Shown here: positions 4,449 to 37,625 of the stretch, one piece after another
Layout: the number at the start of each line of letters is the position of its first letter
Position numbering within the stretch: position 1 is the first letter of the stretch
Assembly: GCA_964457935.1 (NCBI GenBank)
Contig: CAYWFC010000001.1
Coordinates: forward strand, 1 to 45,819
Origin: an uncultured Lachnospiraceae bacterium
GTDB taxonomy: Bacteria; Bacillota; Clostridia; Christensenellales; UBA1242
DNA: 45,819 bases
Direction of reading: 5' to 3'
The notes under the pieces: generated by a model
Databases searched by the model: none
What the model saw: only the letters and a program-made list of their open reading frames with translations
Told to the model about the DNA's origin: nothing
Program-made: the position numbers and the translations under genes

Positions 4449-4774
4449 ATAAAATTATATTTAGATAATTTTCTGAAAAATTTAATAATTTTCAAAAAAA
4501 TGCGAAAAAAATCCAAAAAATGCAAAAAAAGTAGAAAAAATAGCAAAAAATTCATATTTTTTATCATTTTTGACTATTTTAACGAAAAATGCGATTGACA
4601 ATTTTTACCATATATGTTATCATTCCGATGACGCTAGAATAAATATGTGCTAGAAAATAACAATATTTTTTTAGATAGTTTTGTATCATCTTCGCCAGCA
4701 GTGAGTGCAATATGGTGGACATATGATTGCCTCATGAGAAGAATAACTAACGCAACAAATAAAACTATCGCAAC

Positions 4775-13690: not shown

Positions 13691-13724
13691 CGCGTGGCGT
13701 CATATCTTGGGTATAGGAGACGAG

Positions 13725-16334
13725 ATGTTTTTTTATAGCAAAGAGGAGGCGCTGGACAAGCTATCCAGTAGCGAGAGCGGGCTAGACAGTGCGCGCATAT
13801 CCGACCACAAGAAAAAATACGGTGCAAACAAAGTGGACGAGGCGAAGAAAGAGAGTGTATTCGTGGCTTTTTTGCGCCAATTCCAAAATCTGATGATTAT
13901 CATACTACTACTATCGGCAGGGGTGTCTATCACGCTGGCGCTGACTAGTGGTGAGTATGCGGACTTATTCGAAGGGTTTATCATACTCTTCATAGTGATC
14001 ATGAATGCCATAATAGGTGTCATCCAAGAGAACAAAGCGCAAGCCAGCCTCGCCGACCTGAAAAAGCACATAGTGCAGTACTCCAAAGTAGTGCGGAGCG
14101 GAGTGGTGATGCACATATCGAGCGACGAACTGGTAGTGGGCGACATAGTGTGTCTCGAGGCAGGCGACATAGTGCCGGCGGATTTGCGCCTAATAGAGAC
14201 GCATTCGCTGAAATGCGACGAGAGCAGTCTGACGGGCGAGAGTTTGCCGGTGGAGAAAAACGCCAATCTGATACTGAACAAGCACACTGCCATAAACGAG
14301 CAGAAAAATATGGCATTTAGCGGATGCAGTGTGAGTGCCGGCAGAGCCAAAGGCGTGGTGGTGGCAGTGGGCAATCAGACCGAGATAGGCAAGATAGCCA
14401 ATATGATATTCTCCACCAAAAAAGAGCAGACCCCACTCCAGAAATCACTCCAAAAGATAGGCAAAGTCATCACTATATCAGTGCTGGTGGTGTGCGTGGT
14501 GATATTCTTGCTCGAGATATTCTTCGCATCAGAGCGGAGCGTGCTCTCTGCACTCATGACGTCAGTGGCACTGGCGGTGGCAGCGATACCAGAGAGTTTG
14601 CCTGCCGTCATCACTATCATCATGGCTATGGGTGTGACCCAGCTCGCCAAGCGCAAAGTCATCATCAAGCAACTGCACGCCGTAGAGACGCTGGGGAGTT
14701 GCCAAGTGATTTGCTCGGACAAGACTGGCACTCTGACGCAAAACAAAATGACCCTGACCCACCTGTACCTAAATCTCGAGCGTTGCGAGGCAGACACTGG
14801 CACAGACGAGTACACGCACGCCATAAACTGTATGGCGCTGTGCAACGAATGCACTGTATCAAAAGGGGCTGTGCTAGGCGAGCCCACCGAAGTGGCATTG
14901 TACGAGTACGCTATGCCACATTTCGCACTCAAAAAGCACAAGCGACTGTTCGAACTCCCGTTCGACTCCACGCGAAAAATGATGACCACTGTGCACAGCA
15001 TAGGTGGCATAGTGAGTTATACCAAGGGGGCGTTTGATATGGTGATAGAGCGTTGCTCCACCATAAATATCCATGGCAAAATCCAAGCGCTCACTCCAGA
15101 CATTCGCCGACGCTTGCAAGCCATAAACAAAGAAATGGCGGACTCCAGCCTGCGCGTGCTGGCGCTGTGCTACAAAGCATACGACGAATACAATATGGAC
15201 GCTGACTTAGAGCGCGATATGACATTCCTGGGGCTGGTAGGCATGATAGACCCACCGCGTGTAGAAGTATATGACGCCATACAAAAATGCTTCTCTGCTG
15301 GGCTAAAGCCAGTGATGATCACAGGCGACCACAAAAACACCGCCTTTGCCATAGCGCGACGCCTGCACATAGCGGACAGCGAGAGCCAAGTCCTGACAGG
15401 CGAGCAGATAAACGCCATGAGTGATGCGCAGTTTGCACGCAAGGTAGGGGATTACACAGTGTTCGCACGCGTCACCCCTGAGCACAAGGTCAAGATAGTG
15501 ACCGCCATAAAAAAGCAGAGCAAAGTAGTGGCTATGACTGGCGACGGCATCAATGACGCCCCTAGCCTGAAAATAGCCGACATTGGCGTGGGTATGGGCA
15601 TATCGGGTACTGATGTGGTCAAAAATGTGTCAGATATGGTCATTACGGACGACAATTTTGCCAGCATAGTGGTGGCTGTCGAAGAAGGTCGAAAAGTGTA
15701 CAGCAATATCCAAAAGGCGCTACAATATTTGCTCAGCACCAATATGATAGAAGTAGTAGGTATGCTACTAGGGCTGATATTTTTCCCAAATGTGACATTC
15801 TTGACCGCGTCGCAGATGCTATTCATCAATCTCGTCACTGACAGCCTGCCGGCGTTCGCACTCGGGGTGGAAAAAGCCGAGAAAGACATCATGACTCGCG
15901 CCCCGCGCAGTAGCAGAGAGAGTGTATTTTCGCGCAGTGTCACTGTGGGCATAGTGTACCAGTCCATACTCCAGCTCATATGCGTGATGAGTGTGTATGT
16001 GCTGGCCAATATTTACGCTACGCCCGAGGTGGCGAACACTATGGTGTTCTTCACTATCATATTCGTGCAGACACTGCACAGCATCAATGCCAAGACGAAC
16101 GGCAGTATACTGGACATCAATATTTTCGAGAACAAGACATTCAATATTTGCTTCGTAGTCACCACAGCACTGAATAGCATAGTGGCATTCGTGCCTATCG
16201 TGAGACGGATGTTCGGCCTGTGCGCGCTGAGTGCGTCGCAATGGGTGTGGGTAATGGTGGCGTCGCTGGCTATCATCCCGAGCGTGGAGATAGTGAAATT
16301 GGTGCTGTATGGCAGAAATCGCAAAACTAAATGA
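13725..16334 (+). CDS. Cation-translocating P-type ATPase (Ca2+-ATPase, P2-type)
   Basis: Motifs are TGES, the phosphorylation site CSDKTGTLTQNKM, MITGDHKNTA and the hinge MTGDGINDAPSLK. About 10 TM segments are predicted. The start is set at ATG 13725 after TAGGAGA; the track starts at an upstream TTG. Confidence 0.95.
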   Translation: MFFYSKEEALDKLSSSESGLDSARISDHKKKYGANKVDEAKKESVFVAFLRQFQNLMIIILLLSAGVSITLALTSGEYADLFEGFIILFIVIMNAIIGVIQENKAQASLADLKKHIVQYSKVVRSGVVMHISSDELVVGDIVCLEAGDIVPADLRLIETHSLKCDESSLTGESLPVEKNANLILNKHTAINEQKNMAFSGCSVSAGRAKGVVVAVGNQTEIGKIANMIFSTKKEQTPLQKSLQKIGKVITISVLVVCVVIFLLEIFFASERSVLSALMTSVALAVAAIPESLPAVITIIMAMGVTQLAKRKVIIKQLHAVETLGSCQVICSDKTGTLTQNKMTLTHLYLNLERCEADTGTDEYTHAINCMALCNECTVSKGAVLGEPTEVALYEYAMPHFALKKHKRLFELPFDSTRKMMTTVHSIGGIVSYTKGAFDMVIERCSTINIHGKIQALTPDIRRRLQAINKEMADSSLRVLALCYKAYDEYNMDADLERDMTFLGLVGMIDPPRVEVYDAIQKCFSAGLKPVMITGDHKNTAFAIARRLHIADSESQVLTGEQINAMSDAQFARKVGDYTVFARVTPEHKVKIVTAIKKQSKVVAMTGDGINDAPSLKIADIGVGMGISGTDVVKNVSDMVITDDNFASIVVAVEEGRKVYSNIQKALQYLLSTNMIEVVGMLLGLIFFPNVTFLTASQMLFINLVTDSLPAFALGVEKAEKDIMTRAPRSSRESVFSRSVTVGIVYQSILQLICVMSVYVLANIYATPEVANTMVFFTIIFVQTLHSINAKTNGSILDINIFENKTFNICFVVTTALNSIVAFVPIVRRMFGLCALSASQWVWVMVASLAIIPSVEIVKLVLYGRNRKTK

Positions 16335-16519: not shown

Positions 16520-16547
16520 AAATCTGTGCTTCGGCGCAGATTTTTTG
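16520..16547 (+). terminator. Rho-independent terminator
   Basis: ATCTGTGC-ttcg-GCGCAGAT followed by TTTTTT. It lies about 190 nt after the ATPase stop. Confidence 0.75.
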
Positions 16548-16620
16548 TCGTGGAGTATTGACCTCGGTACATAAAATATGTTAATATAACACATATATAA
16601 TATATATTAAGATATATAAG

Positions 16621-16785
16621 GAGCAAAATATACATTTTTCTGCTATAATATATAAAGCCAAAGATATATTAGTGCTATGATATAGAGCCAAAGATACATT
16701 TTTCGCTATAAAATATAGAATGAAATATACATTTTTCGCTATAATATAGAACAAAAGACACATTTTTCGCCAAAATGTGCGCAAC
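16621..16785. repeat. ~33-bp tandem array (5 diverged units), each carrying a -10-like box
   Basis: The motif AAATATACATTTTTC(T/G)GCTATAATATA recurs five times. It contains TGCTATAAT / TGCTATGAT / CGCTATAAA / CGCTATAAT variants. The array lies directly upstream of the real promoter. Confidence 0.7.
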
Positions 16786-16788
16786 CCC

Positions 16789-16815
16789 TTGACAAAAATG
16801 CGGGGGGGGTATAAT
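16789..16815 (+). promoter_or_regulatory. Promoter of the ABC/giant-surface-protein operon with a G8 tract in the spacer
   Basis: TTGACA is at 16789-16794 and TATAAT at 16810-16815. The spacer is only 15 nt (AAAATGC + G8 at 16802-16809). AAAGGAG and ATG 16853 follow. Confidence 0.65.
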
Positions 16816-16852
16816 CAACATAATTACTTTTGGATAGAAAAAAGGAGAATAT

Positions 16853-17581
16853 ATGTTAGAAGTCATCAATTTCTCAAAAAAATATAAAGGAGCGCAGAAA
16901 TACTCTGCTAAGAATATCAGTTTCAAGGTAGCCGACGGCGAAGTATTGGGCTTAGTCGGGGGCAACGGTGCTGGCAAATCGACTACTATCAAGAGCATAG
17001 TGGGGATATTGCCGTTCGACGAAGGGCGCATCATAGTGAATGGTCACGACATGGCGCGCTCGCCAGCCAGCGCGAAGCAGACTGTAGGATACGCGCCGGA
17101 CGACCACGCTGTGTATGACAAACTGACCGGCAGGGAGTACGTAAACTACATAGGCAGTCTATACAGTGTGCCAAAAGAGCTCAAAAAGGAGCGTCTGGAC
17201 TACTATGCGGATTTATTCAAGATAAACAACGACCTAGACAATCAGATATCTAGTTATTCGCATGGTATGAAGCAGAAGATATGCCTGATAGGCTCGCTCA
17301 TACACGAGCCGAAACTATGGGTGCTAGACGAGCCAATGATGGGACTCGACCCCACCACCACGAACGAAGTGAAAAAGTGCATCAGAGACTACGCCAGCCG
17401 TGGCAACACAGTGCTATTTTCGTCGCACAATCTCGACATAGTGGAAGAAGTCTGCGACACTGTAGGTATCATAAAGAAAGGGCATTTGGTAGAGTTTCTT
17501 AACCTAAAAGACGCGCAAAGAGATGCCAAATTTGACCTAGAGAAATTATTCTTAGAGATAAACGAGGAAGACGCGAAATGA
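16853..17581 (+). CDS. ABC transporter ATP-binding protein
   Basis: Motifs are Walker A GGNGAGKST, signature YSHGMKQK, Walker B LWVLDEP and an H-loop SSHN. Length is 242 aa. Confidence 0.92.
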   Translation: MLEVINFSKKYKGAQKYSAKNISFKVADGEVLGLVGGNGAGKSTTIKSIVGILPFDEGRIIVNGHDMARSPASAKQTVGYAPDDHAVYDKLTGREYVNYIGSLYSVPKELKKERLDYYADLFKINNDLDNQISSYSHGMKQKICLIGSLIHEPKLWVLDEPMMGLDPTTTNEVKKCIRDYASRGNTVLFSSHNLDIVEEVCDTVGIIKKGHLVEFLNLKDAQRDAKFDLEKLFLEINEEDAK

Positions 17582-25319: not shown

Positions 25320-25605
25320 GATACTATTTTTTATCACACCCTAGCAACGGACATTGAATTATTGCAAAATACAACTTTTTCAAATTTAATTATAAAAACA
25401 CAAATGAATGGCAGTGAATATTGACATTGTAACAAATTATATGTTATAGTCTAGTCAATGAGCAAATAACCAAATTGGCTTGCTATAATTATTAAATAAA
25501 AATCAACTATAATCTAACCTTTTATGTTAAGGTTGGTCAGTTATGTAAGTTAATCGCAATTATAGGTGATTAGCTTTTTTGTTGTAAAAAAATCAAGGAG
25601 GAAAA

Positions 25606-37374: not shown

Positions 37375-37625
37375 AATAAATATCAAAAAAATAAAATAAT
37401 TAAAATAAAAAACGAAAATAAAATAAAAAATAAATAAAAATAATAAATCGGAAAATAAATAAAAAATAAATCGGAAAATAAATAAAAAATAAATCAAAAA
37501 AATAAATAAAAATAAAAAAAACGACAAAAAATAATTAAATAAAATATTTATCGCCCATATCTCAGCATAAAGCGAAGAATAAATAATAAATAAAAAATAA
37601 ATAAAATAAAAAAGCACATTTATCA
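37375..37625. repeat. Extremely A-rich (plus strand) low-complexity/tandem-repeat tract downstream of dnaA
   Basis: About 250 nt are almost free of G/C. The tract includes ATAAATCGGAAAATAAATAAAAA x2 plus a degenerate third copy. AATAATTAAAATAAA also echoes the dnaA stop region (TTGAATAATTAAAATAAA). Confidence 0.8.

Follow-up and report, generated by a model that had tools for sequence, protein, structure and literature searches.

Phase variation through homopolymers in promoter spacers is textbook knowledge for pathogens of the genera Neisseria, Haemophilus, Bordetella and Mycoplasma. Specifically, in Mycoplasma hyorhinis, which belongs to a Firmicutes-related lineage, a poly-A tract in the -35/-10 spacer of the vlp genes switches surface proteins, and in Bordetella pertussis slippage in a poly-C tract in the promoter regions of fim2 and fim3 switches a surface structure; the fim tract sets the distance between the site of the activator BvgA and the -10 element. 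The porA gene of Neisseria meningitidis carries a poly-G tract between -35 and -10, and its expression is high with 11 G residues, 2-fold lower with 10 and 13-fold lower with nine (PMC3639595). Phase variation of surface structures has also been described for gut commensals (PMC9187656, PMC11892184). The poly-G tract of the Bifidobacterium breve pilus lies in the coding sequence and acts by frameshift, and the invertons of gut Bacteroides and Clostridioides, i.e. invertible promoters, are turned by site-specific recombination between inverted repeats. The gut-commensal literature that we retrieved concerned DNA inversion, methylation and coding-sequence tracts, and our literature search returned no description of a promoter-spacer switch for uncultured gut Clostridia, for Christensenellales-like commensals or for the operon family studied here.

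We report a run of eight G residues (G8) between the -35 and -10 hexamers of a promoter in front of a giant surface-protein operon, found in a stretch of 45.8 kb that was analysed as a whole (hereafter the window). We think it likely that G8 is a hypermutable homopolymer in a sigma-A (sigma-70-type) promoter spacer, where slippage alters the spacing and, with it, promoter use of the operon. It would be a switch of a known kind that is new for gut Clostridia, and it is conserved over dozens of uncultured species on one operon.

Positions 16789-16815 of the window read TTGACAAAAATGCGGGGGGGGTATAAT, i.e. TTGACA-AAAATGC-GGGGGGGG-TATAAT (Table 1), and the 15-nt spacer between these hexamers that the initial annotation had given was thus confirmed by direct reading. 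The ABC ATPase gene starts with an ATG at 16853, and 37 nt lie between this codon and the end of the -10 hexamer. G8 is the sole run of seven or more G or C residues in the window, for which dinucleotide shuffles predict 0.10 G8 runs, and perfect TTGACA-N12-21-TATAAT pairs occur three times, compared to an expected number of 0.09. The other two perfect pairs have spacers of 18 and 17 nt; the organism hence uses canonical promoters, and the G8 promoter is the odd one in spacing. Elsewhere in the window, an intergenic segment (4494-4550) contains a phased array of six A6-A7 tracts approximately 10.3 nt apart (caaaaaaatgcgaaaaaaatccaaaaaatgcaaaaaaagtagaaaaaatagcaaaaaa), for which intrinsic bending of the DNA is predicted, and a looser series of A runs is present at 37385-37531.

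Table 1. Promoter region and operon features in the window (L numbers refer to related loci)
Feature	Position	Strand	Remarks
Intrinsic terminator closing the preceding P-type ATPase gene (13707-16334)	16520-16546	+	Conserved in L001 and L008
Weaker second site resembling a promoter (TTGACC-18-TAATAT, TG extension)	16558-16587	+	9/12 match; conserved in L001 and L008
Tandem repeat array, 31-33-nt units, about 4.5 copies, consensus AAAGATACATTTTTCGCTATAATATAGAACC	16621-16770	+	Directly upstream of -35
-35 hexamer TTGACA	16789-16794	+	Perfect consensus, read from sequence; kept in L001-L005 and L007/L008
Promoter spacer AAAATGC + G8, 15 nt	16795-16809	+	Fixed part 7 nt
G8 homopolymer, proposed slipped-strand switch	16802-16809	+	Last eight spacer bases
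-10 hexamer TATAAT	16810-16815	+	Perfect consensus, read from sequence; abuts the tract
Ribosome-binding site AAGGAG	16842-16847	+	5 nt before ATG; read from sequence
ABC-2/DrrA-like ABC transporter ATPase, 242 aa	16853-17581	+	First operon gene; Pfam ABC_tran 5.5e-28
Multi-TM (12-TM) permease, 533 aa	17578-19179	+	Start overlaps ATPase stop (translational coupling)
Giant protein, 2014 aa	19190-25234	+	N-terminal hydrophobic anchor/signal, Big_2 Ig-like repeats, C-terminal domain without assigned family
Terminator-like hairpin and T-run	25547-25586	+	3' of the giant gene; probable operon end

The open reading frames and the Pfam matches bear out the operon as it had been described, i.e. ABC ATPase, permease and a 2014-aa Ig-like surface protein. 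In addition to its Pfam match, the ATPase has NCBIfam matches of the drrA/GldA-like type that are below the family cut-offs. For the permease neither Pfam nor NCBIfam gave a match, and some of its homologues have PF09847 (12TM_1) or PF16949. The giant protein had no NCBIfam match and its C-terminal 374 aa no PDB sequence match, while its orthologues are 2000-3100 aa long with Big_2/Ig_Eae matches. With an anchor/signal and Big_2 repeats, the controlled product is predicted from its sequence to be surface exposed and of the type encoded by contingency loci.

Using permease homologues and a scan of species-representative genomes, we identified the operon family in MAGs of uncultured Clostridia from the guts of rabbit, chicken and other animals, some of which had been submitted under the label Christensenella-like or Lachnospiraceae; at the species level, the best match was 67% identical. 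The order ATPase, permease and very long ORF is kept in 72 of 74 related loci. An exact-protein look-up identified no identical ATPase or permease elsewhere, and the exact promoter pattern had no match among genome contigs. In the loci L001-L005, the operon is separated from the P-type ATPase gene by an inserted gene for an M60-like peptidase of 921-932 aa (e.g. L001, 319-3084), which is mucinase-type with F5/F8 type C domains and is absent from the window.

Transcription from the upstream P-type ATPase gene is shut off by its terminator, so the operon needs a promoter of its own. That the TTGACA/TATAAT pair is the only good one available, as claimed in the initial annotation, is slightly overstated, since the weaker, conserved candidate stands right after the terminator. 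Judged from its sequence, this second site could give basal, tract-independent transcription of the operon. Taken further, the operon might be expressed from it, or from another promoter, with a G run next door that is prone to mutation and irrelevant. The conservation of the second site and its TG extension would fit such a static arrangement, which we nevertheless hold to be improbable, given that both hexamers around the tract are perfect, a combination that is rare in the window, and given the distribution of the tracts and spacers across species (see below).

Each unit of the repeat array contains CGCTATAAT, with a palindrome, ACATTTT-TCGCC-AAAATGT (16761-16779), in the last of them. The copy number of the repeat varies in relatives, with approximately two copies in L008 and one in L001, and the array may represent a regulator-binding or a VNTR-like element. 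Its position, together with that of the palindrome, directly upstream of the -35 hexamer raises the idea that the tract is a switch of a different design, which either sets the distance or phase of the core promoter relative to a regulator bound at the repeats or the palindrome, as in Bordetella fim, or alters the local DNA structure. Eight members of the family which have a tract and no recognisable -35/-10 pair (L015, L027, L035, L039, L077, L078, L083 and L088) also suit this idea, as do species that sit stably at spacers of 20-21 nt. However, the window tract is located downstream of a perfect -35, and a change in its length leaves all distances between the -35 and sites further upstream as they are. 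Moreover, the array is conserved neither in copy number nor in presence, G and C tracts both occur in the family, and there is no stable single-strand structure at the tract. On balance a switch of this design appears unlikely, and we prefer an effect of the tract on the -35/-10 spacing.

Three further candidates were rejected. A hairpin formed from CCCC...GGGG folds, as single-strand DNA, no better than shuffled sequences (z = 0.44), and for an RNA element the leader/intergenic region gave no Rfam match even at E values up to 1. For an inverton, the sole inverted repeat is weak (15 nt, 80% complementary; 16542-16556 and 16784-16798), and among the 5-7 contigs per species none has the promoter in the inverted orientation.

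For the preferred spacing switch we propose the following route. Slipped-strand mispairing in replication would add or remove G residues, each of which would shift the distance between -35 and -10 by one base pair, and the changed spacing would in turn change how RNA polymerase uses the promoter of the ATPase, permease and giant-protein genes. Since seven nucleotides of the spacer are fixed, G8 corresponds to 15 nt and G9, G10 and G11 to 16, 17 and 18 nt, respectively. The last three are predicted to be ON, and the G8 allele in the window is probably a low or OFF state, as judged from general promoter knowledge and from porA. With ON and OFF lengths that interconvert, a clonal population would, in our proposal, always hold cells with and cells without the giant protein.

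Variation in tract length was read from assembled contigs (Logan) of relatives in different samples. In the relative represented by the five contigs L001-L005, whose permease is 81% identical to that of the window, the promoter reads TTGACA-AAATGC-Gn-TATAAT with n = 9, 8, 8, 10 and 8, and one other column (a SNP) is variable in 9.6 kb. A second species (L090-L095; permease 47% identical) has G10 and G11, each in three samples; three SNPs are also present, and the tract length is incongruent with the SNP haplotype, which at the level of contigs suggests recurrent change. In a third species (L097-L099) the tract, being G10, G9 and G9, is the only difference in 6.6 kb, and a further contig sets in right at the tract. 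The P0012 and P0025 groups have no tract and were used as negative controls; the upstream regions of the tract-less contigs, five in one case (L115-L119) and four in the other (L120-L123), were identical across samples. In the P0047 group one contig only spans the tract, which is G11. Taken together, the variable tracts in three species and the invariant tract-less controls identify the tract as the site that mutates most readily in every locus open to examination.

Hence, length polymorphism, the absence of which from related strains had been named in the initial annotation as counting against a switch, is present in three related species, and for these orthologous promoters it occurs within or between otherwise clonal populations (0-3 other variable sites in 6.6-9.6 kb). 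From the relatives we infer that the tract varies also in the window's own strain, for which the G8 length is known from one assembly. As a separate observation, in L100 and L101 a different sequence of 30 nt (positions 1-30) takes the place of the tract promoter and joins the L097 sequence just after the -10; both contigs start there, and over 3.3 kb they have one SNP relative to L097. The two contigs may represent an allele with a replaced promoter, or else the junction of a rearrangement.

Homopolymers are error-prone in sequencing, and some contigs do stop at them: in four rabbit-gut runs, every Logan contig breaks off at the G15 tract of L071, which is uninformative on its lengths, and L102 and L126 each start at the tract of their own locus. 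Such breaks at long tracts are consistent with heterogeneity but also with sequencing difficulty. If the length variation as a whole were an artefact of sequencing or assembly, the true genomes would have one fixed length. We judge this to be very improbable, more so than the two alternatives above, since the contig consensus represents the majority of the reads, Illumina reads resolve G8-G11, and the three species differ in majority length between samples with essentially no other differences. An artefact can also not explain why tracts in independent assemblies from different studies are enriched at one position, nor why coding tracts coincide with frame breaks (both described below). We return to the tract as a slippage switch acting on spacing, and to its distribution in the operon family.

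The family scan covered 77 species-level loci with enough upstream DNA. Among the 41 runs of at least eight G or C residues, 33 fall in the zone of 400 nt that precedes the ATPase gene and makes up 4.5% of the DNA; this corresponds to an 88-fold enrichment (binomial p ≈ 2e-37). An upstream tract is carried by 31 of the 77 species, and in approximately 28 species the tract (G6-G15 or C7-C10) lies inside a -35/-10 pair that matches at least 10 of 12 consensus positions. The 5' UTR varies between 22 and approximately 330 nt. Outside the tract, the spacer varies from clade to clade in both sequence and length, and the tracts stay pure. A pure homopolymer that is kept, or re-created, at one functional position while its surroundings have diverged speaks for selection on mutability and not on sequence, and both G and C orientations occur, which an effect at the DNA level would lead one to expect. 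The tracts are thus non-randomly placed and conserved, as would result from selective maintenance. A neutral tract beside a static promoter would neither show such an enrichment at one position in 31 species nor remain pure next to a diverging spacer.

Two loci have tracts within genes: in L085 (at approximately 7509) a G9 run coincides with a frame break in the giant gene, and in L086 (at approximately 4750) a G10 run with a frame break in the permease gene. These coding tracts are candidates for translational (frameshift) phase variation, which would be independent routes to switching the same operon, and they strengthen the view that expression of the operon is under fluctuating selection.

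Some other tracts were noted in the course of the scan. L067 has a run of 13 A residues, not G/C, in a TTGACT-16-TATAAT spacer upstream of the ATPase gene, which may be a poly-A version of the switch. The G34, G7/C7 and G16 runs at a contig end of L064 (positions 7-76) were regarded as a poly-G artefact of two-colour chemistry and were excluded from the counts. Outside the operon family, metagenome contigs show the same motif, CCTTGACAAA(A)ATGC with G7-G13 behind it, upstream of unrelated genes (L106, L108, L109, L111, L112 and L113; also L105, L107, L110 and L114). One of these encodes a lipoprotein with FN3-like repeats (MKFKKLSSLLF...AGCSNGS), for which the tract is G9 or G10 depending on the contig, and the others are signal-peptide or lipoprotein genes. 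These sequences suggest that poly-G promoters precede surface-protein genes more widely.

Spacer lengths were obtained by a scan of the upstream regions in which spacers of 12-22 nt were allowed equally. For strong promoters without a tract, 20 of 25 have spacers of 16-18 nt; tract-bearing promoters are spread evenly over 12-21 nt and nine of 26 fall in the 16-18 nt range. Over 28 species the tract-bearing spacers have a mean of 17.25, a median of 17.5 and a standard deviation of 2.35 nt, and the tract length partly offsets the length of the fixed part, the variance of the sum being smaller than for random pairing (permutation p = 0.04). Such a distribution is in keeping with promoters whose spacing drifts about the canonical optimum through slippage. 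Decayed tracts are present in L022 (CGGGGGAGGG) and L068, both having 17-nt spacers, and in L007/L008, the closest relative of the window, where G6 plus A gives a spacer of 13 nt.

All alleles sampled in the lineage of the window are shorter than 17 nt (15 nt in the window, 14-16 nt in the L001 group and 13 nt in L007/L008), and no ON allele was found among them; for two other species, sampling gave alleles of 20-21 nt. The short alleles together with those of 20-21 nt indicate that OFF-like states dominate the samples. Suboptimal spacers throughout the window's lineage would also be in keeping with an operon that is transcribed from elsewhere, as considered above for the second site; the centring of the spacers on the canonical length across species argues against it. 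As a whole, the polymorphism in relatives, the positional enrichment and the scatter of spacers around 17 nt support, at the level of sequence, the reading as promoter-spacer phase variation that the initial annotation had put forward.

For the clade, our data tip only slightly towards the view that this is a contingency operon which dozens of uncultured Clostridia species from animal guts keep under the control of homopolymer slippage, mostly by means of a promoter-spacer tract of G or C and in some cases by coding tracts, with populations in vivo that are mostly off-optimal. That one operon shows this architecture in at least 31 of 77 species, with differences among samples of a single strain, points to selection that is strong and fluctuates. 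The selective agent presumably acts on the surface protein, be it antibody, phage or niche; plausible forces on the giant protein and its partner ABC transporter are host IgA, phage and an adhesion trade-off. This singles out the giant-protein family as ecologically important, and tract length provides a simple marker that can be scored in metagenomes. If the clade-wide view is true, simple sequence repeat (SSR) phase variation would be a major route to surface variation in gut Clostridia that has so far gone undescribed, parallel to the invertons of Bacteroides, and surface variation could be read directly from metagenomes.

Comparing the locus with invertons and with the B. breve pilus, all three concern phase variation, putative for the window, of surface structures in gut commensals. 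Unlike in B. breve, the window tract is in a promoter spacer and not in a coding sequence, and unlike for invertons, no alternative orientation was seen among the contigs of relatives. The fim promoters differ in that the window has a perfect -35 upstream of its tract, so that no activator need be invoked. The vlp genes share with the window a homopolymer in the promoter spacer and a surface protein as product; they differ in having poly-A and in being small lipoprotein genes of a multigene family in a wall-less pathogen. The likeness is also seen with the poly-G of porA and the poly-C of opc, where the homopolymer lies between the hexamers and the tract lengths are similar (8-13). In porA and opc the gain or loss of a single base changes the spacing and grades the expression of a surface protein, as is predicted for the window. 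Unlike porA, which encodes a porin, the tract in the window would control a three-gene operon for an ABC transporter and a giant Ig-like protein; it abuts a perfect -10, and it belongs to an uncultured gut bacterium of the Gram-positive type (Clostridia). The placement of the tract inside the -35/-10 pair, which characterises the porA/opc/vlp type, is found in the window as it is in the related species with a recognisable pair, and in every defining feature that can be tested the putative switch in the window agrees with that kind.
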